A model generated the notes under the pieces. The model did no database searches, was not told the origin of the DNA, and worked only from the letters and a program-made list of their open reading frames with translations. This document shows, piece by piece, positions 14,161 through 52,294 of a DNA stretch of 64,000 bases; position 1 is the first letter of the stretch, and the number at the start of each line of letters is the position of its first letter. The translations under genes were made by a program, and so were the position numbers. The DNA comes from Hyphomicrobiales bacterium (GTDB lineage Bacteria > Pseudomonadota > Alphaproteobacteria > Rhizobiales > RI-29): positions 26,969-90,968 of the forward strand of contig WGLQ01000002.1 of the NCBI GenBank assembly GCA_016125495.1, read 5' to 3'.

Positions 14161-14622
14161 TCACTGACCGGTGTGGGAAGAATAAACCGTCGTCTGGCCA
14201 TCGGCGCCGAAGGCGATCACGTCATACGGTTCCGCGGATTGGCCGGGCACCTCCATTCCAGGGGAGCCGATCGGCATGCCCGGGACCGCAAGTCCGGCGA
14301 CTGGCGGGCGCTCGGCGAGTAGGCGCGCGATGTCCTGTGCGGGGACGTGACCCTCGACGAGATAGCCGGCAACCTTGGCGGTGTGGCAGGAGCGGAGCGG
14401 CTCCGGCACGCTCTTGCGCAGGGTGACCGCGGACATCGATCTCGCTTCGTCGACCACGACCTCGAAGCCGGCCGCGCGAAGATGGTCGACCCACTTCAGG
14501 CAGCAGCCGCACCCGGGCTGGCGCCAGACTTCGATCCGCTCGCCCGCCGTGGCGGAGAGACCGAAAAACTGGCCGGCGAGAATCAGCATGGCGATCAGCG
14601 TCGCGCGCTCTATGAGTCGCAT
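14161..14622 (-). CDS. DUF411 (CopG-like) periplasmic metal-binding protein
   Basis: Signal peptide MRLIERATLIAMLILAGQFFGLSA, then WRQPGCGCCLKWVDHLRAAGFEV...SCHTAKVAGYLVEGHVP...GMPIGSPGME, the DUF411 signature. The longer track ORF (to 15294) is an upstream shadow extension. Confidence 0.85.
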   Translation of the reverse strand: MRLIERATLIAMLILAGQFFGLSATAGERIEVWRQPGCGCCLKWVDHLRAAGFEVVVDEARSMSAVTLRKSVPEPLRSCHTAKVAGYLVEGHVPAQDIARLLAERPPVAGLAVPGMPIGSPGMEVPGQSAEPYDVIAFGADGQTTVYSSHTGQ

Positions 14623-15041
14623 GGGTCGTGCTCCTTGGAAATGCAGCCGATAGGTTCGGCCCCTGCAAGGCCGGCGATGATCGGGCAGTCGGGCCGCTCG
14701 TCGCCGTGACAATTCTCGATGAGGTGCGTCAGTGCGTCCGCCATGGCGCGCAATTCCGTCATCTTGCGTTCGATGTCGGACAAATGCTCCCGGGCCAGGG
14801 ATTTCACGTCCGCGCTCGCGCGCCCGCCGTCCTCGTAGAGGGCCAGGAGCTTGCGGCAGGTGCCGATGTCGAAGCCGAGGCCCCGGGCGCGGTGGATGAA
14901 TGCCAGAAGGTCGACCTCGCGGCTGCCATAGGCGCGGTAGCCGTTGGCGCGGCGCTGCGGCACGACGAGCCCGATCTGCTCGTAGTAGCGGATGGTCTTG
15001 GCGGGCAGACCGGAACGCGCGGCGGCTTGGGAGATGTTCAT
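14610..15041 (-). CDS. cueR: Cu(I)-responsive MerR-family regulator (CueR/HmrR type)
   Basis: MerR HTH MNISQAAARSGLPAKTIRYYEQIGLV and C-terminal metal loop NCHGDERPDCPI (C-x7-C as in CueR). The 3' end overlaps the DUF411 start by 13 nt. Confidence 0.85.
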   Translation of the reverse strand: MNISQAAARSGLPAKTIRYYEQIGLVVPQRRANGYRAYGSREVDLLAFIHRARGLGFDIGTCRKLLALYEDGGRASADVKSLAREHLSDIERKMTELRAMADALTHLIENCHGDERPDCPIIAGLAGAEPIGCISKEHDPCDS

Positions 15042-15062
15042 CGTGTCGTTTTCGCTTCTTGC

Positions 15063-16571
15063 TCAGCGCATCACGAATGGATTGGCGGCAGGAGCGTCCG
15101 AGGTGTTGATCCAGACGGATTTTGTGGAAAGAAATTCGCGGATCGCCTCCATGCCGTTCTCGCGCCCGAGCCCGGAGCGCTTGATGCCGCCGAACGGCAT
15201 CATGTAGCTGATGGCGCGGTAGGTGTTGATCCAGACGACGCCGGCCTTCAAGGCCTTGGCCATGCGGTGCGCGCGGGCGATGTCCTTGGTCCATACGCCG
15301 GCCGCGAGACCGTAGACCACGTCGTTGCCGATGCGCACCGCATCGGCCTCGTCGGAAAAGCCGATGATCGAAAGGACCGGTCCGAAAACCTCTTCCTGGG
15401 CGATGCGCATGTCGTTGCGAACGTCGGTGAAGATCGTCGGCTCGACGAACTGTCCGCCGGTGATGCCGGGCCCCGTTGCGGGGCGGCCACCGAGCAGGCG
15501 GCGCGCGCCTTCCGCCTCGGCGATGGAAATGTATTCGAGGACCTTGGCGTACTGCGGCGGCGTGGTGACCGGGCCGATGTTGGTCGCGGGATCACGCGGG
15601 TCGCCGATGCGGGCCGAGCGGGCGATGGTGAGGAGTTTTTCGGTGAATGCTTCGCGCACGGAGTTCTGGACGAGCAGCCGGGAGCCGGCGACGCAAGTCT
15701 GGCCGGTGGCGGCAAAGATGCCGGAGACCGCCCCGGCGGCGGCGGCATCGAGGTCGGCGTCGGCAAAGACGATGTTCGGCGACTTGCCACCGAGCTCGAG
15801 GGAGACGCGCTTCAGCGACCGGGCCGCCGCTTCGTAGATGGCAGCGCCAGTCCGGTCGGAGCCGGTGAACGATATCTTGGCGACGTCGGGATGCTCGACG
15901 AGCGCCTTTCCAGCCTCGTGGCCGAAGCCGGCAACGACATTGAAGACGCCGTCCGGAAATCCGGCCTCCTTGGTCAGGGCAGCGAACTCCAGGGTCGATG
16001 CGGACGTGAACTCGGAGGGCTTGACGACGACGGTGCAGCCGGCGGCAAGCGCCGGGGCGCACTTCCATGCAATGAACAACAGCGGCGAGTTCCATGCCGT
16101 GATAGCGCCGACGACGCCAACGGGCTCGTTGGTGGTGAAGGCGAAGTGGTCGGCCTTGTCCAGCGGGACGACCGTACCCTCGATCTTGTCGGCGAGACCG
16201 CCATAGTAGTACCACCACTCGGGATGGTAGCGAAGTTGGGCCAGCATCTCGGACATCAGCTTTCCGTTGTCGCGGACCTCGATTTCGGCGAGCCGTTCGG
16301 CGTTTGCGGCCACGAGGTCGCCGAGCCGGCGCATGAGCTTTCCGCGCGCGCTCGGCGTCATGGAAGGCCAGGGGCCGCTTTCGAGGGCACGTTTGGCGAC
16401 CTTGGCGGCGCGTTCGACGTCCTCGGCCGTGCCGCGTGCGATCCGGGCCCAGATGGCGCCCGAATAGGGGTCCAGGCTGTCGAACCAGGCGCCTGCGGCG
16501 GGCGCGACGTACGCGCCGTCGATGTAATGGTTGTATGTGACGACGCCAGCTTTGGCATGGGGCGCGTTCAT
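15063..16571 (-). CDS. NAD(P)-dependent aldehyde dehydrogenase
   Basis: ELGGKSPNIVF and GQTCVAGSR (catalytic Glu and Cys contexts). Start taken at ATG 16571 (MNAPHAKAGVVTYNHYIDG). Confidence 0.9.
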   Translation of the reverse strand: MNAPHAKAGVVTYNHYIDGAYVAPAAGAWFDSLDPYSGAIWARIARGTAEDVERAAKVAKRALESGPWPSMTPSARGKLMRRLGDLVAANAERLAEIEVRDNGKLMSEMLAQLRYHPEWWYYYGGLADKIEGTVVPLDKADHFAFTTNEPVGVVGAITAWNSPLLFIAWKCAPALAAGCTVVVKPSEFTSASTLEFAALTKEAGFPDGVFNVVAGFGHEAGKALVEHPDVAKISFTGSDRTGAAIYEAAARSLKRVSLELGGKSPNIVFADADLDAAAAGAVSGIFAATGQTCVAGSRLLVQNSVREAFTEKLLTIARSARIGDPRDPATNIGPVTTPPQYAKVLEYISIAEAEGARRLLGGRPATGPGITGGQFVEPTIFTDVRNDMRIAQEEVFGPVLSIIGFSDEADAVRIGNDVVYGLAAGVWTKDIARAHRMAKALKAGVVWINTYRAISYMMPFGGIKRSGLGRENGMEAIREFLSTKSVWINTSDAPAANPFVMR

Positions 16572-16856
16572 GGCCGAGGTCTCTCGTGCGCTGCTGCGTG
16601 AGGTCGAGCCCGCTCCGGGGTTCGACGCAAGGGAAGCACGCGACTGCCACCTCGCCAAGTCGTTTGCGCGTTCGCCACGGCACCGGAGCGCAGAAGTGAT
16701 CCGCAGCCGGGTGCAAATCCGGCCCTGGCAAATCCAATCACGGTGTCGTGAGGCCTTCGCCAGGCTGTGGGATCAGGATTGGAGCCACCATGACCGCGGA
16801 CTTGGCGCGGCGGGTGTGAACTGGCGGCGCGGGCATCACGACGGAAGGTTTGAGCG

Positions 16857-17381
16857 ATGAGCCAGACGCAAAATGGCGGATCGACGCCCAAGGGCCACGG
16901 CACGGGAAGCGAGGATGGCGTGCACATTTTCCTCGAGGGACTCGACGAGGCCGGCTGGCGTCTCATCCGCCGGCACGGCGAGGCGCAGGTGTTCGCACCT
17001 GGTGAAGTGTTGGTCGGTGAGGGCGAGCGCGACGAGGCGATCTTCATCATCGAGGCGGGGAGCGCGGAAGTGGTGCTCGGCCTCGTCGACGATGGCGATG
17101 CCGGCGGATGGTCCATGGCCGGGCAACGGCGCGGCGGGCGGGTGATCGCGCAATTGCCCACTGGAACAGTGTTCGGTGAAATCGCGTTTTTCGACCGAAT
17201 GCCACGCAGCGCAACGGTTCGGGCGACCTCGGCGGGCCGGATGCTGCGCCTGACGCGGGACGGGTTCGAGCGGCTTGCGGCCTGGGAGCCGCACCTCGGT
17301 CGTCGCATCCTTCTCGAACTCGGGCGGATTCTTGCGCTTCGACTGCGCTGGGTCCAGAGCCAATCAACGGTGCGGCGCTAG
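16857..17381 (+). CDS. Stand-alone cyclic-nucleotide-binding domain protein
   Basis: cNMP-binding beta-barrel with VFGEIAFFDRMPRSATVRA. GGAAGG lies 8 nt upstream of ATG 16857. Confidence 0.8.
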   Translation: MSQTQNGGSTPKGHGTGSEDGVHIFLEGLDEAGWRLIRRHGEAQVFAPGEVLVGEGERDEAIFIIEAGSAEVVLGLVDDGDAGGWSMAGQRRGGRVIAQLPTGTVFGEIAFFDRMPRSATVRATSAGRMLRLTRDGFERLAAWEPHLGRRILLELGRILALRLRWVQSQSTVRR

Positions 17382-17395
17382 TCCGCACCCGAGGA

Positions 17396-20300
17396 ATGCG
17401 AGGAGTGACGATCGTGGCGGACGGATCGGACAATCGCATGGGGGGCGGCACGGCACGGCTGATCGGTGGGGACGATCCCTTCAAGCCCTATACCGAGATG
17501 CGGTCCTGGCTGCCCAAAGCCTTCTGGTTGATGCTGCGCGTTCTGACGCTCATGGCGGCCCTGGCGCTCGCGGTCACGCTCGTGGTCGCGCCGGAGATCG
17601 GTGTCACCGTATTCTGGAAGATCGTCATCCCGTCGCTGCCGATCGTGCTCGCGGTCGTGCCGGGTCTCTGGCGCCAGATCTGTCCGATGGCGTTCGCCAA
17701 CCAGATCCCTGTGCAGCTCGGCTGGTCGGCGAACAGGACACTGCCGATCTGGCTGAAGGAATCCTCCTATCTCTACGCCATCCTGGCGTTCATCGTGCTG
17801 GTCGCCCTCAAGCACGTGACGCTCTACAACTCGCCCGGACCGTTGCTTGCGATGGTGCTCGGGGCGCTCGTTCTCGCGTTCCTCGGCGGCCTCGTCTACA
17901 AGGGGCGAAGCGGCTGGTGCGGCACGTTCTGCCCGCTCGGACCGTTGCAGAAGGTCTACGGCCACACGCCTGTCGTCGTGGTGAAGAACGGGTATTGCCC
18001 GACCTGTGTCGGCTGCCAGAAGAACTGCTACGATTTCAGTCCGCGCTCGGCGTTCTTCCAGGATCTCTACGACAAGGACCCGTGGTACGCGGGCCACCGC
18101 CGCTTCTTCGTCGGTGTGCTGCCGGGGCTGATCATCTCGTTCTGGCTCGGGCGCAATCCGGAAGAAATCGGCTACGTCCGCTATGTGCAGGAGCTGTTGT
18201 TCTGGCTGCTGCTCTCGGCCGGCAGCTTCTTCGTGATGACCAGTGTCCTGCGCACGAGCGTCTACAAGGTGGCCGCGGCCTACGGCGTCGTTGCGATTTT
18301 CCTCTACTATTGGTTCGCGGCGCCGGTGGTGCTCGAATCCATGCGCGAATTGTTCGATGTCGCGCTGCCGGATGCGCTCGCCTATGGCGTCATCGGGCTC
18401 GTGGTGCTGGTCGCGGCGCGCAATCTCTTCGCCGGATACCGCCTCGAGCGCCTCTACTGGGCGCGGGAGGCGGGCGAGGAGCCGCGGCTCGGGGTCTCGG
18501 GGCAAGCGGCGGGTGCCCCGACGGGTCCCTCGATCCTCGAGAAGGCGAGTGGCAAGCGCATTCCGCTCGATCCGAACCGGCCCATCCTCGATCTCCTCGA
18601 ATCGTCCGGGATAAGAATAGACTTCGGCTGCCGGACCGGCATGTGCGGCGCCGATCCGATCGTCGTCGAGGCAGGGGAGGAGAATCTTTCGCCGCCGTCG
18701 GCCATCGAACTCGAGACGTTGCGGCGGATGGGCCTCGAAGGGCGGGCGCGGCTCGCCTGCGTCTGCCGGGCGCGGGGCAGCGTCACCATCGATCTCGCCA
18801 AGGACCCGATGAGCCTTGCAGCGGCAGGTCCGGTGCCGCGCACGGTCGACCTCGCGGCGATGGCGGGCGTCGGGCGGGTCGTCATCATCGGCAACGGTGT
18901 GGCGGGAGTGACCGCGGCCGACCGGATTCGCCGGGCGAGCCCGAGCTGCCGCATCGACCTCGTCACGCGCGAGAACCATCATTTCTACAACCGGATGGCG
19001 ATCGGGCGCGCGATCTACGGGCGCGGCGGCCTCGACGGCCTCGGCCTCCTGCCCGAGAGTTGGGATAAAAAGAACGACGTCACCGTCTGGCTCAACACCA
19101 TCGCGCGCTCGATCGATCGCCAGTCGAAGGAAGTGGTTCTCGGAACGGGTGAGCGGCTCGCTTACGACAAACTCATCCTGGCCACGGGCGGAAGGCCGGC
19201 GGTGCCGCCGGCACCGGGCGTCGACCTCGGCGGCTGCTTCGTGCTGCGCGAGGCGCGTGATGCGTTCGAAATCCGCGCCTGGAGCCAGGCGCACGCCTGC
19301 CGCCATGCCGTGGTCGTCGGTGGCGGCGTGCTCGGCATCGAGGCGGCCGATGCGCTCCGTCAGCTCGGGCTCGGTGTCAGCATCGTGCACCGCTCGGTCC
19401 ATCTCATGGACCGCAACCTCGATGCGGAGGGTAGCCTTCTTCTCGAACATTATCTGCGCGGCCTCGGCGTCGATGTCCTGACGCGCTCGCAGGTTGCGAG
19501 CATCGACGGAGAAGAGAACGTCGAGGGCGTGACGCTCGCGGACGGTCGGCACGTCGAGGCACAGATCGTGCTGTTCTGCATCGGCGTGCGCGGGGAGACC
19601 GCGCTCGCGGAGGCGGCGGGATTGCAGACCGGGCGCGGCGTGATCGTCGACACCGCCATGCGCACGAGCGATCCCGACATCTACGCAATCGGCGACGTCG
19701 CCGAATTCGGCGACGGACCGTCCGGCCTGTGGACGGTTGCGACCCAGCATGCGCAGCTGGCAGCCGATGACCTCCTCAAGCGGCGGGAGGGCAGCCATGT
19801 GCCGCGCACGGTCATGCAGCTCAAGATGGATGGTGTCGATGTGGTCGCCTATGGCGAGCACGAACTCACCCGACTCGGACAGGAGTTGATCGTCGACGAC
19901 GACGAACCCGGACATGCCCGGCGCCTCCTGCTGGTGGAAAACGGACGCATCATCGGGGCGGTGTTCGTCGGTCCGCCCGGTACCGCCCTCGGTGTGGCGG
20001 ATGCGATCCTCAGCGAGCGCGACATTACCGGCGTGCTCGGGGAATTGAGGCGGGGGAACTGGCAGGCGCTGGCCGGCCAGAGCGAGATCGTCGAGAGCGA
20101 GGACGACGCGCCACAGTCCACGACCCGGGTCGAGGAGCGACGGCCAGCCCTCTCGGGACCGCTCGGCTGGGGCATCGCCATGCTCGTCGGGGCGATGGTG
20201 ACGGCGGGCGCGGCGGTCTGGGTCGGCATGGTTCCAAACGAAATGCGAATCGAGCGGATGATGTCCGCGATGGAGGAGGCGTTCACGGCACGCGGCTCCA

Positions 20301-21154
20301 AACATGGGGTCGGCGGGGCAGCCGGCGGCCAGATCGACAGCACCACCGTCGCGCCACGGCCGGACCGGGCGAAGGAGCCGGCACAGCCCGCGGCCACCGT
20401 GACCGAGGTGGCCGATGCGACGCCGACGCAGGACGTGCGTGCTCCGGAAGGTGCGCCGACCGGAGCAACGCCCGTTGCGATCGTCGAGCAGTCGCCTCGG
20501 ACTGAGCCGGCGTCCACGCCGGCACCGGGCCGTGGCGTCGAGGTCGAGGCACCGCAGGCCGAGCCGATCGGCCCAGTTGCCGACACCGCGCCGGCCGCCG
20601 ATGGCGCCTCGGCATTGCCAGCCGTTCCAGCGATACCCGCGCCGGTTCCGACACCGGCTGGCGGATCGACGCCTCCGGCCGCACCGAGCCAGACGGCGGC
20701 CACGCCGGCCACGTCGACCGCCACCGAGCCCGGCGGTGAAGCGGCCGCTCCTGTTACGCCGACGGTGCCGGGAGCGGCGACGACCGAGCCGCAGCCGCAG
20801 CCGCAGCCGCAGCCGAGCGAGCCGGAGGTGCCTACAGGGCCCCTCACGGGCGAAGACCTTCGCCAGGCGGTCAGCGGGCGCATGATCTCCGGTGGCGGGT
20901 TCTTCGGGACACGCCGGTTCGAGATGCGGTTGGCTGCCGGTGGTGCCGTGCAGGGGCGGTTCATGCATCAAGACAGTTTCGGATCGCAATTGGTCGACAA
21001 CGGTCGCTGGACCCTGCGCAACGATCAGCTTTGTGTGACGTTCTCGTTCACCGGCGGCGGGCGCACGGCATGCGTCGCCGTTGAGAAGTCCGCGACAGGC
21101 ATGCGTTTTCTCGGATCGGGTCAACGTCCGCTCGACTGGCGCATCGAGCCGTGA
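17396..21154 (+). CDS. Large fusion protein: polytopic membrane Cys-motif (NapH/NosR-like polyferredoxin) domain, 2Fe-2S ferredoxin-like domain, FAD/NAD(P)-dependent pyridine-nucleotide-disulfide oxidoreductase, TM helix, Pro/Ala-rich linker and an unknown C-terminal domain
   Basis: Motifs WRQICPMAF, GRSGWCGTFCPLGPLQ and NGYCPTCVGCQKNCYDF sit within multiple hydrophobic helices. IDFGCRTGMCGADPIVV...ARLACVCRA is 2Fe-2S-like. RVVIIGNGVAGVTAADRI, HAVVVGGGVLGIEAADAL and IYAIGDVAEF mark the FAD and NAD sites. TM helix GWGIAMLVGAMVTAGAAVWVGMV. The start is uncertain (ATG 17396, GTG 17414 after GAGGAG, or ATG 17498). Confidence 0.75.
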   Translation: MRGVTIVADGSDNRMGGGTARLIGGDDPFKPYTEMRSWLPKAFWLMLRVLTLMAALALAVTLVVAPEIGVTVFWKIVIPSLPIVLAVVPGLWRQICPMAFANQIPVQLGWSANRTLPIWLKESSYLYAILAFIVLVALKHVTLYNSPGPLLAMVLGALVLAFLGGLVYKGRSGWCGTFCPLGPLQKVYGHTPVVVVKNGYCPTCVGCQKNCYDFSPRSAFFQDLYDKDPWYAGHRRFFVGVLPGLIISFWLGRNPEEIGYVRYVQELLFWLLLSAGSFFVMTSVLRTSVYKVAAAYGVVAIFLYYWFAAPVVLESMRELFDVALPDALAYGVIGLVVLVAARNLFAGYRLERLYWAREAGEEPRLGVSGQAAGAPTGPSILEKASGKRIPLDPNRPILDLLESSGIRIDFGCRTGMCGADPIVVEAGEENLSPPSAIELETLRRMGLEGRARLACVCRARGSVTIDLAKDPMSLAAAGPVPRTVDLAAMAGVGRVVIIGNGVAGVTAADRIRRASPSCRIDLVTRENHHFYNRMAIGRAIYGRGGLDGLGLLPESWDKKNDVTVWLNTIARSIDRQSKEVVLGTGERLAYDKLILATGGRPAVPPAPGVDLGGCFVLREARDAFEIRAWSQAHACRHAVVVGGGVLGIEAADALRQLGLGVSIVHRSVHLMDRNLDAEGSLLLEHYLRGLGVDVLTRSQVASIDGEENVEGVTLADGRHVEAQIVLFCIGVRGETALAEAAGLQTGRGVIVDTAMRTSDPDIYAIGDVAEFGDGPSGLWTVATQHAQLAADDLLKRREGSHVPRTVMQLKMDGVDVVAYGEHELTRLGQELIVDDDEPGHARRLLLVENGRIIGAVFVGPPGTALGVADAILSERDITGVLGELRRGNWQALAGQSEIVESEDDAPQSTTRVEERRPALSGPLGWGIAMLVGAMVTAGAAVWVGMVPNEMRIERMMSAMEEAFTARGSKHGVGGAAGGQIDSTTVAPRPDRAKEPAQPAATVTEVADATPTQDVRAPEGAPTGATPVAIVEQSPRTEPASTPAPGRGVEVEAPQAEPIGPVADTAPAADGASALPAVPAIPAPVPTPAGGSTPPAAPSQTAATPATSTATEPGGEAAAPVTPTVPGAATTEPQPQPQPQPSEPEVPTGPLTGEDLRQAVSGRMISGGGFFGTRRFEMRLAAGGAVQGRFMHQDSFGSQLVDNGRWTLRNDQLCVTFSFTGGGRTACVAVEKSATGMRFLGSGQRPLDWRIEP
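20791..20814 (+). repeat. Hexanucleotide tandem repeat (GCAGCC)x4 encoding PQPQPQPQ inside the Pro/Ala-rich linker
   Basis: Read directly: gagcc gcagcc gcagcc gcagcc gcagcc gagcgagccg. Translates to EPQPQPQPQPSEPE. Confidence 0.9.
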
Positions 21155-21278: not shown

Positions 21279-22076
21279 ATGAAGCTGCTGATGATGACCG
21301 ATCTGCACCTCGTTGCGCCGGGTGCGGAGATGGCTGGCGTCGATCCGCGCGTCGGGGTCGAACTCTGCCTTGCCGATATGCAGCGCTGGCATGGTGATGC
21401 GGCGCTCTGCGTGATCGCGGGTGACCTCACGGATCGCGGCGAGGTCGATGCCTATCGCTGGCTGGCGGACCGGCTCACGGCGTTCACCCTGCCGGTGCAA
21501 TTGATGATGGGCAACCACGACGACCGAGAAGCGATGGCGGCTGCATTGCCGCAGGTCGAGCGCGACGCGAACGGCTTCCTCCAGAGTATGCGTGAGACCG
21601 AAGAGGGGGTGCTGCTGTTTCTCGATACGTACAAGGGGCCGACCTCGGAAGGGGCATTTTGTGAGCTGCGCCGGGCCTGGCTCGCCGAGCGCCTCGAGAG
21701 TGTCCGCGGCCGTCCGGTCTGGATCTTCATGCACCACCCGCCATTTCCGATCGGCCACACCTTCATGGATCGGATCCGGTTGGACGAAACGGACGCGCTA
21801 GCGCTCGGCCAGCTGCTTTCGGCGCACGACAACATCCGCCACATCTTCACGGGCCATGTGCATCGCGCCGTGCAGACGATCTGGCACGGCATTCCGGCCA
21901 CGTGCCTGCCGGGAACGAGCCACATCATGGCCATGAAGCGGCGCACGCATGGGCTCGCTTATCCGACGGGCAGGCCCATGTACGGCATCGTCCTCATCGA
22001 AGGCGAGCGCACGACCGTGCATTTCGAGACCGTGCCCGAGGAGCCGGCAGGACAACCCGAACTCGCCGCACCGTGA
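21279..22076 (+). CDS. Metallophosphoesterase, class III cyclic-nucleotide phosphodiesterase (CpdA/GpdQ)-like
   Basis: Calcineurin-like motif series MMTDLHL, AGDLTDRG, MGNHDD, FMHHPP and TGHVHR. ATG 21279 follows GGGAGGG. Confidence 0.8.
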   Translation: MKLLMMTDLHLVAPGAEMAGVDPRVGVELCLADMQRWHGDAALCVIAGDLTDRGEVDAYRWLADRLTAFTLPVQLMMGNHDDREAMAAALPQVERDANGFLQSMRETEEGVLLFLDTYKGPTSEGAFCELRRAWLAERLESVRGRPVWIFMHHPPFPIGHTFMDRIRLDETDALALGQLLSAHDNIRHIFTGHVHRAVQTIWHGIPATCLPGTSHIMAMKRRTHGLAYPTGRPMYGIVLIEGERTTVHFETVPEEPAGQPELAAP

Positions 22077-47294: not shown

Positions 47295-48596
47295 TCATCC
47301 GATGCCGAGTGGAGCGAGCACGCGTGGCCCCGGTTGGTAACCGACATCGTCATGGGGCGGTTCGAGGCCCGGAACAACGACCTTGGCGACGGAAATATCG
47401 GGATGCTCGGGCCAGCCGAGGTCCACCGCGACAGCTTCCTCGATCCCGACGGCCGCAAGGTTCGCGCAGACGCGGCGCAATTCGGCGTCGTAGGTCGGGG
47501 TGCACGGATCCGCGGGCCATGAGGGGGCGACCGGGGGGCGCGTGTCGATCTCGAGGCTCTCGCGAATGCGATCGGCGAAATCGCCGTCGATCACATAGTT
47601 GCGGGCGAGGAGATCGTCACGGGCGCCGGCGATCAGGGTGAGCCGGTCCTGGGCGGCCTCCGTTATGGCGCGTGACATGGCGATGGACGGACTGGCATGA
47701 CAACCTGAACCGATGGTGGCGCGCGCCTTCGAGCGCGACGCGGCGAGTCCCTCCCAGATCATGCAATAGGCGCATGGCACGCCGACGTCGCTGGTGATGT
47801 CCCAGAGATGGACTTCCATGCCGAGCGAATGGATGCGCTCGATCAGGGCACGGGGGCCATCGAGACAGGGATGGTCGAGGTCGAGGCGGGGAAAGGCGCG
47901 CACACGACCGAAGTGGTAATGAAACAGTGTGATGGCATCGCGCTCGATGATCTCATAGAGCGCATGCGTGATCGCCTCGAGGACGTTGTTGCCGGATGCC
48001 AGACCGTTCGAGCCCTTGAAAAAAATCCCCTCGGGTCCGCGATCCACCCCGATCGTGAAGTCGTTGGTAACGGTTTCGAGCGGCAAGAGGCGCGGCGTTT
48101 GCCCGAGGATGTCGAAGCCCTCGACCCAGGCGAGCGGAGCCTCGTCGAGCGGCGGGGCATCGTCGCGCATGGGCAGGCGCGTGAGGTCGACGGGGCGGCC
48201 GAGGCGGGCGACGGTGGCCACTGTCGTGCGGTGAACGGGCAGGCGCAGGTTCTCGGCATGGTGGGCCTCGATCGACTCCATGATCCCCGAGACCTTGGCG
48301 GCTTCGAGCGACACCCCCTTGCCGGTGGAAACGCTGACGGAGCGCGACAGCGGGCGCACCACATTGACGACGGGCAGCCCGATCCTGTCGAGCCCTGTGA
48401 TGTTGGCTACCCGGGTGATCCCGTAACGCGGCAGGAGCGGCATCACGCGATCCAGTGTTTCGCCGGGCGGGCGCGAGCGGAACGTGCCATCGTAAGCGTG
48501 GCGGGCCCCGGGCTCGAGGGCGGCCGGGTGGATCAAGTGTGTTGTGGTCCCGGCGGGGGCGGTCGCGAGGCGGGGTCCGGGAGCGGCGTCATCCAT
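47295..48596 (-). CDS. ycaO: YcaO-like family protein (TfuA-associated class)
   Basis: GKGVSLEAAKVSGIMESIEAHHAE and ALYEIIERDAITLF (the ATP/Mg-binding Glu motifs of the YcaO superfamily). ATG 48596 (GGAG 12 nt upstream), with alternatives GTG 48599 and TTG 48632 (track start). Confidence 0.9.
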   Translation of the reverse strand: MDDAAPGPRLATAPAGTTTHLIHPAALEPGARHAYDGTFRSRPPGETLDRVMPLLPRYGITRVANITGLDRIGLPVVNVVRPLSRSVSVSTGKGVSLEAAKVSGIMESIEAHHAENLRLPVHRTTVATVARLGRPVDLTRLPMRDDAPPLDEAPLAWVEGFDILGQTPRLLPLETVTNDFTIGVDRGPEGIFFKGSNGLASGNNVLEAITHALYEIIERDAITLFHYHFGRVRAFPRLDLDHPCLDGPRALIERIHSLGMEVHLWDITSDVGVPCAYCMIWEGLAASRSKARATIGSGCHASPSIAMSRAITEAAQDRLTLIAGARDDLLARNYVIDGDFADRIRESLEIDTRPPVAPSWPADPCTPTYDAELRRVCANLAAVGIEEAVAVDLGWPEHPDISVAKVVVPGLEPPHDDVGYQPGPRVLAPLGIG

Positions 48597-48923
48597 CACG
48601 AGGCGGGGCTCCAGTAGCGGCTGTGAAGGCAATGGTCATCGTTCGCGTCGGCGACATGGAGCGCCGAAACGCGAGGGCATGAGCTCTTTGCGCCCTGTGA
48701 CACCACGGGACTGCCTCCACTTCAGCCGACCGGGTGGGTAACGATGGTCGGATCGACAGCGACCGCCCCGATCCGGTCCTGTCGGGCGGTCCGTCGGGCG
48801 GGGGCTCCGACGATCTCCCTATACTCAAGAACCGCCGGGAACCCTCAGCCCCGAACAGTCCTGCGATCGATCGTCACGGGCTTTCAAGCGCGCGCTGGAG
48901 GCCGCTTCGATCGGTCATTGTTA

Positions 48924-49360: not shown

Positions 49361-49370
49361 GGTGCATAAG

Positions 49371-49520
49371 TCAGCGAATGCGTCCGCCGACCTGGGCGGG
49401 CGTAACCGCGGTCGCGGAAATACGACCGCCAACTTGAGCCGGAGTCACGGCCTTGGGAGCGATGCGTCCACCAACGTTCGAGGGCGTCTCGATCGCGGTC
49501 GTCGCCGTGGATTTTGTCAT
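49371..49520 (-). CDS. Unannotated 49-aa peptide with three VGGRI cassettes; candidate RiPP precursor (putative YcaO/TfuA substrate)
   Basis: Manual translation of the minus strand gives ATG (49520-49518) ... TGA (49373-49371): MTKSTATTAIETPSNVGGRIAPKAVTPAQVGGRISATAVTPAQVGGRIR. Strong SD lies directly upstream. The two AVTPAQVGGRI units differ at 9 of 11 codons, all synonymously. Same strand as, and upstream of, ycaO-tfuA-DMT. Confidence 0.75.
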   Translation of the reverse strand: MTKSTATTAIETPSNVGGRIAPKAVTPAQVGGRISATAVTPAQVGGRIR

Positions 49521-49531
49521 TTTCCTCTCCT
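49521..49531 (-). promoter_or_regulatory. Shine-Dalgarno sequence of the small ORF
   Basis: The reverse complement of 49521-49531 is AGGAGAGGAAA, immediately preceding the ATG. Confidence 0.7.
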
Positions 49532-49592
49532 GTTGACAGGTTTCTTAACGCGTCAAGTCAATCATTCAATCGGATGCGTGCAAACGGTATTA

Positions 49593-51335
49593 ATGATGGA
49601 TTCATCTTCTCCGGTTCGTTGGCAATCGGTTCTCTATGCCGATGCCGTGGCATATTCAGAATCAATGCGGTTGTGCAGATCGGAGACGATCGAGGCAATC
49701 GGGGCCGCGCGTCGGTCGTTCTGCGAAGCTGCCGCGCAGTATCACGGCCGCATCGTGGAGATGACGGGCGACAGCGTGCTCGCCGTCTTCAACACCAGCC
49801 AGGCGGCCATGCGGGCGGCGCTTTCGGTCCAGCACGCGCTGAGCCGCGGTCACGGCGAGGGCGATGGTCGGGCTCTGAGATTCCGAATCGCCATATGCGA
49901 AGGGGAAACCACGGAGGGTGAGGGCGGGCTCTTCGGAGAAGTGATCATCAAGGCGGCCCGCCTCCAGTCCCTGACGGCTCCCGGTTGCATCGGAGTCGAC
50001 GAGGATGTTTTTCAGGCCCTCGCCCCCAGTCTGCGCGTCTTCGAGCCGAGGCGGATCGGGGGGGTCGCAAAGGCGGGGTCGATGCCTATTCGCGGCATCG
50101 AGATCGACCCGGCGGCGATATCGACCGGTTGCCCGCCACCGGTTCCGCGTGGCGCCGGCAGTCGCCTCAGGGCGGTCACCGCGGTCGAGGTGCTGGTGGC
50201 CGGAACGACGGACGACGAGGTCCGCGATGTGCTGGCCGGCCGGGTGGTCGATCATCTCGTCGGCGCGGCGTTCGACGTGACGGCGCGACAGGTGCAGCGT
50301 GGCCTCAGGAATCTCCTCTCGCGAATGGCCAGGGATGGGGCAGGCTGCGGCGACTACCTGGTGCTGATCGAAGGCGAGCCCGGTTTCGGGCGGTCGGTCA
50401 AGCTCGGCATCTACAGCCGCCAGCAACGGAGATTCCTTCTCTCGCGACACTTTGGCTGCCTGGAGTTCGGACACGGTCGAGGACACAATGTCGCGGGGGC
50501 GCCGGGTGGCGCGAGCGTCGATACGGTCGCCTCCTATGTCGTCGATACGATCGAGGTCGGTGAGATCGAAGCGAGCGACAACCAGGTCCTCTCCCCCCGT
50601 GGCAGTTTCCATCACTACCTCAAGGGAAAGCGTTTGCTTTCCACATACAGCCGGATCGGCATACTGGAAGGCATAAGGGCACTCAGGGAGGCCCTCCATT
50701 TCGATCCCGACTATGCGAGGGCACATGCCCTCCTGGCGCGTGGCTATGCCATAGCGTGGCGCTTCGACTGGGCTTGCGGACCGGCTCAGCCGCTCGAGAC
50801 GGCGATCGAGCACGCGAGCCGGGCGGTGCAGATCGACCCGATCGATCCCGTCTGCGAGCATCAGCTCGGGTTCTGTCACTTCTGGTCGGGTGAGCGCGAT
50901 CGCGCAGTCTATGCGCTCGAGCGGGCGCGGCGCATGCGGCCAGGGTGCGCGGGTGTGGCCGGCGACCTCGGCATGGTATTCAGCTATCTCGATCGCTGCG
51001 ACGAGGCGATCGATCTCTTGCAGGCATCGCTCGCCCTCGACGAGACGAATCCGGATTATCGTCTCTGGTCGCTCGGGGATGCCCACTTCGAGAGGGGCGA
51101 CGACGAGGCGGTTCTGCGCGTGCTCAGCCGGATGCGGGATCCGACTCAATCCTATCGCCTGCTCGCCGCCGCGACCGCGCGCCTCGGCGGTGACCCGCGC
51201 CGGCACGTGGACCGCCTCTTGCGGTACCAGCCCGATTTTTCCGTCGAGCGCTGGATCGCCGTGCAGCCGACCATGACCGAGGAGGGGAAAACGGTCTATG
51301 CCGAAGCGCTGCGTGCGGCGGGGCTGCCGGGCTGA
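49593..51335 (+). CDS. Class III adenylate/guanylate cyclase domain protein with C-terminal TPR-like repeats
   Basis: Cyclase catalytic motifs VLYADAVAYSESM, EMTGDSVLAVF and FRIAICEGE...GEVIIKAARLQSLTAPGCIGV. C-terminal helical repeats (ARAHALLARGYAIAW, PDYRLWSLGDAHFERGDDEAV). Start taken at ATG 49593; the track start 49362 is rejected (see the rejected list). Confidence 0.8.
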   Translation: MMDSSSPVRWQSVLYADAVAYSESMRLCRSETIEAIGAARRSFCEAAAQYHGRIVEMTGDSVLAVFNTSQAAMRAALSVQHALSRGHGEGDGRALRFRIAICEGETTEGEGGLFGEVIIKAARLQSLTAPGCIGVDEDVFQALAPSLRVFEPRRIGGVAKAGSMPIRGIEIDPAAISTGCPPPVPRGAGSRLRAVTAVEVLVAGTTDDEVRDVLAGRVVDHLVGAAFDVTARQVQRGLRNLLSRMARDGAGCGDYLVLIEGEPGFGRSVKLGIYSRQQRRFLLSRHFGCLEFGHGRGHNVAGAPGGASVDTVASYVVDTIEVGEIEASDNQVLSPRGSFHHYLKGKRLLSTYSRIGILEGIRALREALHFDPDYARAHALLARGYAIAWRFDWACGPAQPLETAIEHASRAVQIDPIDPVCEHQLGFCHFWSGERDRAVYALERARRMRPGCAGVAGDLGMVFSYLDRCDEAIDLLQASLALDETNPDYRLWSLGDAHFERGDDEAVLRVLSRMRDPTQSYRLLAAATARLGGDPRRHVDRLLRYQPDFSVERWIAVQPTMTEEGKTVYAEALRAAGLPG

Positions 51336-51562
51336 TCGGGATCGCTAGGTGTGCGGCCGTTGGTACCGCCTTGCGACGCACGTTTCATCGATGGGATGAT
51401 GCAACGTGTTACTGCGGTTTTCCTAACAGCGCCCGGTTGGTTTTCGCCCCTGCTTGGCACAAGAGGTTTACCGGTAGGCGATATAACAATGTCCACGGCC
51501 GAAGGCGGGTGCTTCTCGTCGTATGCGAGCGCGGCTCGAGGGGGGACGAATTGGGGGCAGGG

Positions 51563-52294
51563 ATGAAAGGGGGAAGCTGCGCGCAGCGGCAGTTGCGGAG
51601 GCTCGTCGACAAGGTGGAGCTCTTCCGGGGGATCGGTGAGCACACGGTGGCAGAAATCAGCCGTCGCGCGCGAGCTGTTTCGTTCGCCGGGGGCGAGGAG
51701 ATCGTGCGGCTGGGCGAGCCTGCCACGTCACTTTATCTTCTGGCGCTTGGCCGGGCGGAGGTCTCGGTGCTCGGTCTCGATGGACGCAAGGTCGTGGTCA
51801 ATGTGATCGGCGCGCCCGATCTCTTCGGAGAGATCGCGATCGCCGATGGCGGGCCGCGAACGGCGACGGTGACCGCACTCGAGGCCATCGATTGCTGGAT
51901 GATCGGGCGCGACGACCTGTTGGCCGCACTGGCGTCCGATGCGTGCCTGTCTCGACGGCTCCTCGAATTGCTGGCGAGACGCTTGCGGGCGATAAACGAA
52001 CAGTATTTCGAAGCGACGACCCTGTCCGTACCGGTTCGGGCGGCGCGCCAGCTGTTGCGGCTGGAGGGCCGGGCCGGGGTGTCCGGCCAGCCGGTGCGAA
52101 TTTCGCAGGAGGCGCTCGCGCATCAGGTGGCGGCCTCGCGCGAGCACATGAACCGGGTGCTGACCGGCTGGCGGCGCGGCGGTATCGTGGAGGTGGTACG
52201 CGGGGCGATCATCATCCGTGACGGCTCGCGGCTCAGCAAGCTCGCCGGGTTCGATCACGATCGGCCGGCGGGGACGGCGCGCGCCCTGGGTTGA
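51563..52294 (+). CDS. Crp/Fnr-family transcriptional regulator
   Basis: cNMP-binding domain LFGEIAIADGGPRTATVTALE and C-terminal HTH ISQEALAHQVAASREHMNRVLTGWRRGGIV. Start at ATG 51563. Confidence 0.85.
   Translation: MKGGSCAQRQLRRLVDKVELFRGIGEHTVAEISRRARAVSFAGGEEIVRLGEPATSLYLLALGRAEVSVLGLDGRKVVVNVIGAPDLFGEIAIADGGPRTATVTALEAIDCWMIGRDDLLAALASDACLSRRLLELLARRLRAINEQYFEATTLSVPVRAARQLLRLEGRAGVSGQPVRISQEALAHQVAASREHMNRVLTGWRRGGIVEVVRGAIIIRDGSRLSKLAGFDHDRPAGTARALG

Follow-up and report, generated by a model that had tools for sequence, protein, structure and literature searches.

One open reading frame (ORF; 17396..21154, + strand) in a 64,000-nucleotide stretch of a Hyphomicrobiales genome (contig WGLQ01000002.1; the whole stretch is hereafter called the window) encodes a 1252-aa fusion protein, which we classified as a rare, tail-bearing form within an uncharacterized, signal-associated branch of the NapH-like membrane iron-sulfur (Fe-S) proteins. 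All four parts named in a preliminary description of this DNA were present in the ORF: a NapH-type membrane Fe-S domain; a [2Fe-2S] domain; a complete FAD/NAD(P)H reductase; and a tail consisting of an extra transmembrane helix, a linker, and a terminal domain of unknown kind. The most informative feature of the locus is the partner of this protein, a stand-alone cyclic-nucleotide-binding (CNB) protein encoded directly upstream. We favor, with a little better than even confidence, a reading in which the fusion protein is a second-messenger-controlled, NAD(P)H-driven membrane Fe-S reductase, to which an accessory periplasmic sensor or tether has been added as a tail.

The core of this protein, comprising the membrane domain, the ferredoxin domain, and the reductase domain (~880 aa), is far more common than the full-length form. 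The 120 matches listed by the protein search covered 62-100% of the query at 43-53% identity (P0001 being identical), and nearly all were ~880 aa long. In a pattern scan that covered a single genome for each GTDB species, the core was detected in at least 138 species of Alpha-, Beta-, and Gammaproteobacteria, with carriers including Rhodospirillales, Hoeflea, Devosia, Methylovirgula, Rhodoblastus, Accumulibacter, Rubrivivax, and Marinobacterium. The names attached to these proteins in their sources are generic (“FAD-dependent oxidoreductase”) or have been transferred (“nitrite reductase large subunit”), and full-text searching found no paper on the core family, retrieving only general context on NapH-like proteins. 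Thus, while the architecture had been flagged as one that matched no recognized system, and neither source names nor literature yielded a characterized member, the core itself is widespread rather than singular.

The CNB gene (16857..17381, + strand) encodes a 174-aa protein that matches the Pfam cNMP_binding model (E 2.7e-15; cNMP, cyclic nucleoside monophosphate) and contains a canonical phosphate-binding cassette (FGEIAFF...PRSATVRA), the key residues of which are conserved in the majority of CNB proteins of the family. Both the Pfam match and the G-E...R-[ST]-A cassette expected of a CNB protein are therefore present, and ligand binding is predicted. In the window, the gene is separated from the reductase gene by only 15-33 bp, with no terminator-like site between them. 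The arrangement is not peculiar to this genome: a CNB-only protein of ~150-180 aa is encoded directly upstream and on the same strand in 69 of the 80 loci surveyed, most often with a gap of 0-60 bp. The preliminary description, which had called for a survey of neighbors and phyletic distribution, had overlooked this gene; the survey revealed both its conservation and the occurrence of the core in many Proteobacteria.

A second signal-reading gene, encoding a TagH-like FHA protein that matched TIGR03354 above its cut-off, lies upstream of the CNB gene on the same strand in 31 of the 80 loci, mainly those of Betaproteobacteria. Its distance from the core gene is ~1-2.4 kb in L027, L030, L031, L051, and L056 (Accumulibacter, Rubrivivax, and Leptothrix loci, among others), and in Accumulibacter two FHA matches occur in tandem. 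The flanking sequence retrieved for the FHA-bearing loci showed no type VI secretion genes. When every ORF within ~6 kb on either side of the core gene was clustered all-against-all across the 80 loci, no conserved neighbors other than CNB and FHA emerged, and nothing was conserved on the downstream side; the remaining large clusters were mostly shadow ORFs of the core gene, and the rest were confined to 13 or fewer loci. We accordingly rejected a cytochrome, a quinone enzyme, or a metal transporter as a dedicated partner. A Pycsar-like anti-phage role was also ruled out, both by PADLOC, in which the reductase had no match and the CNB protein matched only the CNB portion of Pycsar effectors, and by the occurrence of adenylate or guanylate cyclases near the core gene in just 6 of the 80 loci.

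The association between this kind of membrane domain and signal readers recurs in more distant paralogs. A tblastn search of plasmids with the membrane domain returned relatives of 25-32% identity that span transmembrane helices 2 to 5 and the Cys motifs. In Synechocystis PCC 6714, a single chain holds both the paralog and, at its C-terminal end, a CNB domain. On Agrobacterium fabrum pAt3 (L089 4806-9813), the fusion is to an FHA domain instead, and directly after it comes a gene for an FNR-type reductase with FAD_binding_6, NAD_binding_1, and Fer2 domains; genes for a cytochrome c peroxidase and for a two-component system lie upstream on the opposite strand. On Leptolyngbya boryana plasmid2 (L092 1860-6973), a WD40 Ser/Thr kinase precedes the paralog, which is followed by a protein combining FHA, FNR-type reductase, and Fer2 domains. 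Judged from these gene and domain arrangements, the triad (membrane Fe-S domain, NAD(P)H/flavin/2Fe-2S donor, CNB or FHA reader) is assembled repeatedly, sometimes by fusion and sometimes with a non-homologous flavoprotein. Such repeated assembly is good evidence that (i) the membrane domain receives its electrons from NAD(P)H by way of a flavin and a [2Fe-2S] center, and (ii) the process is controlled by a second messenger or a phospho-signal.

The membrane Fe-S domain occupies aa 1-350 (17396..18445, + strand). Hydropathy, the distribution of charge (positive-inside), and an AlphaFold2 (AF2) model of residues 1-480, built from an alignment of 89 family sequences (pLDDT 86.7, pTM 0.85), agreed on eight transmembrane helices with the N-terminus inside; in the model the helices span residues 41-64, 66-87, 118-143, 147-167, 229-251, 260-284, 289-320, and 327-361. 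This N-in, eight-helix topology places the Cys-bearing loops (aa 93-122 and 169-235) in the cytoplasm, together with the ferredoxin and flavin domains. The motifs of this part that the preliminary description had quoted were all located: CPMAF (C96), WCGTFCPLGP (C175 and C179), and CPTCVGCQKNC (C201, C204, C207, and C211). Six of these seven Cys are invariant in the 89 sequences, and the seventh, C96, is conserved in at least 90% of them. No His is invariant or nearly so in the membrane part of the same sequences, which argues against b-type hemes and a heme-based relay across the membrane. An acidic motif adjoining the cluster motifs (D223/D226/D228) is also invariant in the family; it is not kept in the distant paralogs.

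Profile comparison identifies this domain as a NapH homolog. When aa 1-385 were scanned alone, Pfam Fer4_5 matched residues 152-188 (23.5 bits against a cut-off of 22), and hhalign aligned the membrane-domain profile with Escherichia coli NapH over 116 columns (probability 92%, E 6.4e-7), with the xCP, GWCGxxCP, and CxxCxxCxxxC motifs in register. By both measures, the transmembrane and CX3CP region is related to the PF12801 superfamily. No solved structural relative was found by phmmer against the PDB, and the 50 Foldseek matches listed for the model of residues 1-480 were nearly all ferredoxin-type folds, none of them a membrane protein.

In NapH, NosR, and PceC, as in the window protein, pairs of transmembrane helices flank a cytoplasmic Cys-Pro motif (WCGxxCP) that is followed by CxxCxxCxxxC. 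NapH, however, has four transmembrane helices and twelve Cys arranged in two CX3CP and two CX2CX2CX3CP motifs, whereas the window domain has eight helices and seven conserved Cys in total, which form one full CX3CP motif (C175/C179), one half motif of the form RQxCP (C96-P97), and one CX2CX2CX3C motif (C201-C211). The genomic setting differs as well: unlike NapH, NosR, and PceC, the family has no conserved nap, nos, or rdh neighbors and no conserved periplasmic NapG or FMN-binding partner in the 80 loci, and the window protein carries, in the same chain, an NAD(P)H/FAD/2Fe-2S input module of its own. Lacking both the paired motifs and the genomic associations, it was ruled out as an ortholog of NapH or NosR. 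Orthology with CcoG/FixG was likewise ruled out, there being no domain specific to CcoG/FixG beyond the shared Fer4_5.

The domains that would feed electrons to the membrane part follow it in the chain. The plant-type [2Fe-2S] ferredoxin domain (aa 378-466; 18527..18793, + strand) matched Pfam Fer2 (PF00111) at residues 385-459 with 27.4 bits against a cut-off of 21. Its best structural match by Foldseek was Rhodobacter capsulatus FdC (9i2a; TM-score 0.81-0.83 on the target, 31-33% identity), and other plant-type ferredoxins were also matched. The predicted ligands lie in the quoted motif GCRTGMCGADP...ACVC: all 89 sequences have C412, C417, and C455, and at least 90% of them have C457. Their spacing is atypical. 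Canonical PF00111 ferredoxins bind the cluster through CX4CX2C...C, whereas here CGAD stands where the third Cys would be expected and two ligands would come from a CVC pair, giving C412-x4-C417...C455-x-C457.

The adjoining ferredoxin-reductase-type FAD/NAD(P)H domain (aa 494-880; 18875..20035, + strand) is complete. Pfam Pyr_redox_2 matched residues 494-786 over all 291 positions of the model (E 5e-61), accompanied by Pyr_redox (E 7e-20) and a weak match to Rubredoxin_C; the two GxGxxG motifs (GNGVAG and GGGVLG) fall within the quoted strings GNGVAGV and GGGVLGIE, and IGDVAEF was located as well. The domain annotation that had been suggested as a check, done here with Pfam, returned Fer4_5, Fer2, and Pyr_redox_2, and nothing past residue 900. 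The nearest solved relatives of the flavoprotein domain are NADH oxidases and the Tod (TodA), putidaredoxin, BphA4, and rubredoxin (RubB) reductases, with ~290-390 residues aligned to PDB ferredoxin reductases at E 1e-30 to 1e-39. The stretch aligned with what we take to be the position of the active-site Cys in NADH oxidases and CoA-disulfide reductases reads HHFYNRM and has no Cys. The best NCBIfam model was that of NirB (TIGR02374; E 6e-80), but identity with NirB was ruled out, as the score of 269.8 bits is far below the cut-off of 578 and the match is limited to positions 1-390 of 794, with the siroheme/4Fe-4S half unmatched. TodA, BphA4, the putidaredoxin and rubredoxin reductases, and the N-terminal domain of NirB are all of the glutathione-reductase type, and the window domain, as in the ferredoxin-reductase pairs of three-component oxygenases, goes together with a [2Fe-2S] ferredoxin. 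The window protein departs from such pairs in that its ferredoxin and reductase share one chain, anchored to a membrane Fe-S domain, and it has neither an oxygenase nor a siroheme partner.

From these domain identities and invariant ligands we infer the following path. NAD(P)H would reduce the FAD of the reductase domain, the FAD would reduce the fused [2Fe-2S] domain, and this in turn would reduce one or more Fe-S clusters held by the seven Cys at the cytoplasmic face of the NapH-related membrane domain. The conserved gene order and the domain fusions suggest that the upstream CNB protein, when bound to a cyclic nucleotide, gates the enzyme, and in other lineages the FHA protein, as a reader of phospho-threonine, may also take part in control. 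As no dedicated partner gene is conserved, the final acceptor is likeliest to be a general molecule of the membrane or its cytoplasmic face that every cell has. By analogy with NapH, a quinone is our favored guess; alternative acceptors would be O2 or, by comparison with CcoG, Cu(II)/Fe(III).

Several points weigh against this proposal. Two standard [4Fe-4S] sites cannot be built from seven Cys, which leaves the cluster content uncertain. Quinone is a candidate only by analogy with NapH, and no quinone site was identified in the protein. P0002 and P0003, the nearest relatives and the ones that share the tail, have no upstream CNB gene, so control by a CNB protein is not obligatory. A phosphodiesterase gene downstream of the reductase in the window (described later) has no homolog in 87 loci, and a conserved role for it was dropped on that ground. 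A flexible linker of 200 aa is a poor conveyor of allosteric signals, and what we call a sensor could be a tether. Finally, the cluster types, the preference for NADH or NADPH, the acceptor, and the effect of the cyclic nucleotide are all deduced rather than observed.

The choice of acceptor bears on a different reading, in which the protein is a CcoG-like metal reductase that uses NAD(P)H to reduce Cu(II) or Fe(III) at the cytoplasmic face of the membrane. CcoG, a membrane polyferredoxin of the Fer4_5 family, is described as a cupric reductase (e.g., PMC7558416), the invariant D223/D226/D228 motif near the cluster motifs could bind a cation, and an ORF with a DUF411 (CopG-type) domain lies ~2 kb upstream on the other strand. 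Yet the 80 loci show no conserved metal-handling gene around the core gene, Pfam detects Fer4_5 but no other CcoG/FixG-type domain in the membrane part, the acidic motif is not kept in the distant paralogs, and an aldehyde dehydrogenase gene separates the DUF411 gene from the CNB-reductase operon. We therefore regard a metal reductase as quite improbable.

The persistent link to signaling modules (CNB, FHA, Ser/Thr kinase, and an EF-hand annotation) might also be read in the opposite direction, with the protein serving primarily as a sensor whose flavin/Fe-S chain reports the NAD(P)H/NAD(P)+ ratio, O2, NO, or the state of the quinone pool to the CNB or FHA protein. The absence of a conserved substrate-related neighbor and the occurrence of the tail domain on cyclases (see below) would fit such a role. 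CNB and FHA domains, however, read signals and are not outputs, making a flow of information toward the enzyme more natural, and a complete three-cofactor chain, recreated in the paralogs with a non-homologous reductase, argues that electron throughput has been selected. A primary sensor is, in our view, unlikely, and we retain the messenger-controlled reductase as the preferred reading.

The part of the protein beyond the core begins with a ninth transmembrane helix (aa 922-948; 20159..20239, + strand; hydropathy peak 1.95), which is kept in P0002 and P0003 and places aa 949-1252 outside the cytoplasm. An Ala/Pro/Thr-rich, low-complexity linker follows (aa 949-1148; 20240..20839, + strand); residues 961-1150 comprise 40 Ala, 38 Pro, and 24 Thr out of 190, in agreement with the composition first noted for it. 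Neither its length nor its sequence is conserved among the three long forms. The chain ends in an extracytoplasmic, lipocalin-like β-barrel domain (aa 1149-1252; 20840..21151, + strand) that includes C1213 and C1226. Hydropathy, the AF2 model of residues 1-480, and the signal peptides of relatives of this domain all bear out the earlier claim that it and the flavin domain are on opposite sides of the membrane.

The tail is rare: it was found in 3 of the 120 homologs among the matches listed (P0001-P0003) and in 2 of the 80 loci (L008 and L009). P0001-P0003 are each other's closest relatives, their N-terminal domains being 65-68% identical to one another and no more than 50% identical to all others, which points to a single acquisition of the tail in a Hyphomicrobiales lineage.

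This rarity made it necessary to consider that the ORF is an artefact, in which misassembly or a frameshift has joined a reductase gene to an unrelated downstream gene; the low-complexity linker, which weakens the coding statistics of that stretch, leaves some room for such an error. However, P0002 (1181 aa) and P0003 (1232 aa), from other Hyphomicrobiales metagenome-assembled genomes (MAGs), have the same end-to-end layout, including the transmembrane helix, linker, and terminal domain, while having diverged to 55-57% identity overall and 43% in the terminal domain. An identical protein of 1246 aa occurs in a Logan assembly, and NCBI has the 1252-aa form as MBI1383434.1 (a Rhizobiales/Hyphomicrobiales MAG). 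The frame is continuous, with a coding-type profile of G+C at the three codon positions (0.70/0.51/0.83) in a window of ~63-70% G+C. Third-position G+C (GC3) is highest in the frame of the ORF from ~17450 to 21150, terminal domain included, and is of the coding type on either side of the linker; it dips only in the Ala/Pro-rich linker itself, where every frame is GC-rich. A frameshift or chimera, which the preliminary description had named as the way in which the fusion might prove false, is thus ruled out for practical purposes, and we give the artefact next to no credence. Translation probably begins at GTG 17414, making the protein six residues shorter (1246 aa): this codon has a GAGGAG sequence 8 nt upstream and yields the form seen in the Logan assembly, making it a better candidate than ATG 17396, whose Shine-Dalgarno-like GAGGA directly abuts the start codon.

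The terminal domain had no Pfam match even at E = 10, nor did its stand-alone relatives. Its structure, the prediction of which had been recommended, was modeled by AF2 with confidence (pLDDT 93.9, pTM 0.85) as an N-terminal helix, a short internal helix, and eight strands. Foldseek returned only weak, lipocalin-type matches (best E 1.3e-2; TM-score 0.43-0.60 on the query), namely, the N-terminal domain of NlpE, Bacteroides lipocalin-like proteins, YedD, and the periplasmic domain of ToxS; a lipocalin-like fold class is plausible, short of membership in any of these families.

An exhaustive search of 1.84 billion representatives with a profile of the 104-aa domain identified 113 relatives. Outside the family, the three top-scoring relatives are class III adenylate/guanylate cyclases (P0121-P0123; E 1e-20 to 1e-25). 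Two of them, P0121 and P0122, share the order of cytoplasmic enzyme, transmembrane helix, linker, and barrel with the window protein: a catalytic domain, one transmembrane helix, a Pro/Thr/Ala-rich linker, and the barrel domain. In the window protein the enzyme is a redox chain instead of a cyclase. In P0123 the connector is short and the domain is present twice, in tandem. Many other relatives are proteins of 110-160 aa with clear Sec signal peptides, or tandem copies. The domain was seen in tandem or on proteins with TPR/BTAD-like regions in P0123, P0127, P0131, and P0126. C1213 and C1226 are invariant in 39 of 39 aligned sequences, and the cyclases P0121-P0123 and the secreted proteins carry the same two Cys; the pair fits an extracytoplasmic disulfide. 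The barrel appears to constitute an unannotated family of extracytoplasmic domains that has no Pfam model and is also found on cyclases.

These properties bear directly on the function first proposed for the fusion, that of a self-contained conduit carrying electrons from NAD(P)H through the NapH-like domain to the tethered C-terminal domain in the periplasm, for example to its Cys pair. A comparable path has been suggested for other proteins, in that the PF12801 superfamily includes modular NapH-like electron-transfer systems with extracytosolic FMN-binding domains, which the window protein lacks, and NosR and PceC have been proposed to pass electrons between the membrane or cytoplasm and such a domain (PMC8238504). 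The topology does put aa 949-1252 outside the cytoplasm, and the two invariant Cys could in principle be redox-active. Nevertheless, more than 97% of the listed family members possess the full redox core and have no tail; no FMN_bind, heme, or Fe-S motif was found in the terminal domain, the fold of which is lipocalin-like; adenylate cyclases bear the same domain, as do small secreted proteins lacking any redox partner; the Fe-S ligands are all cytoplasmic and the transmembrane region has no invariant His; and a disordered linker of ~200 aa holds no fixed distance for electron transfer. We consequently abandoned the conduit as a very unlikely explanation.

Within the messenger-controlled reductase that we prefer, the ninth helix, linker, and barrel would form a rare accessory module that binds a periplasmic ligand or a component of the envelope and thereby tunes or localizes the enzyme. 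The tail is most likely a ligand-binding or tethering module in the periplasm and not an electron carrier, and, because the 200-aa linker is flexible, clustering or localization is a more plausible effect than rigid allostery.

A more specific version of this proposal, which we advance only tentatively, is that cAMP or cGMP acting through the CNB protein, or Ser/Thr phosphorylation acting through the FHA protein, switches an NAD(P)H-driven reductase on or off, in a bacterial counterpart of the EF-hand-gated NADPH oxidases, with the variant in the window wired in addition to a periplasmic sensor module of the cyclase type. NOX5 and DUOX are NADPH oxidases that are regulated by EF-hands and transfer electrons across the membrane through two hemes. 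The analogy is solely functional: in each case, NAD(P)H would supply electrons by way of a flavin to a chain in the membrane, and a domain that reads a second messenger would act as the switch. The membrane parts are not homologous, and the window protein differs in having Fe-S centers at the cytoplasmic face and a CNB or FHA reader.

To our knowledge, few effectors of cAMP or cGMP have been recognized in bacteria beyond transcription factors of the Crp type. If the proposal is correct, a conserved operon for a stand-alone cNMP receptor and a membrane redox enzyme would tie a messenger directly, at the post-translational level, to electron flow or NAD(P)H balance. That the triad recurs in distant paralogs with non-homologous components suggests a general design, so far unnoticed. 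The family also offers a simple, single-polypeptide system in which to probe what NapH-type membrane Fe-S domains do, and its tail-bearing members define an unannotated extracytoplasmic domain family shared with cyclases.

The remaining genes of note in the window include others with a predicted connection to cyclic nucleotides. An SpdA/CpdA-like class III cyclic-nucleotide phosphodiesterase (21279..22076, + strand; Pfam Metallophos) is encoded 124 bp downstream of the reductase gene, probably from ATG 21279, which has GGGAGGG upstream; it matched the NCBIfam models for the rhizobial phosphodiesterase SpdA (E 3.4e-60) and for CpdA (E 4.2e-24), each below cut-off. The window thus holds a trio of cNMP reader, reductase, and cNMP eraser that is not conserved in the other loci. 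A gene with class III cyclase homology and TPRs (49362-51335, + strand; 32% identity to a cyclase over 128 aa, with Pfam detecting TPR only) is followed by one for a cNMP-binding transcription regulator of the Crp/Fnr family (51371-52294, + strand), and this pair constitutes a second cNMP signaling cluster, ~28 kb from the reductase. As support for control by a cyclic nucleotide, this theme among the neighbors, which is not conserved in other genomes, is no more than suggestive.

On the other side of the operon, a 377-aa ORF (14161-15294, - strand), ~2 kb upstream, contains the copper-related DUF411 domain at its C-terminal end, and the true gene is probably much shorter than the ORF. The aldehyde dehydrogenase gene (15063-16658, - strand) lies between it and the operon. 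Farther away, a gene of the YcaO cyclodehydratase family (47295-48632, - strand; Pfam YcaO, E 2.6e-70) may belong to a cluster for a ribosomally synthesized and post-translationally modified peptide or for thioamide formation.

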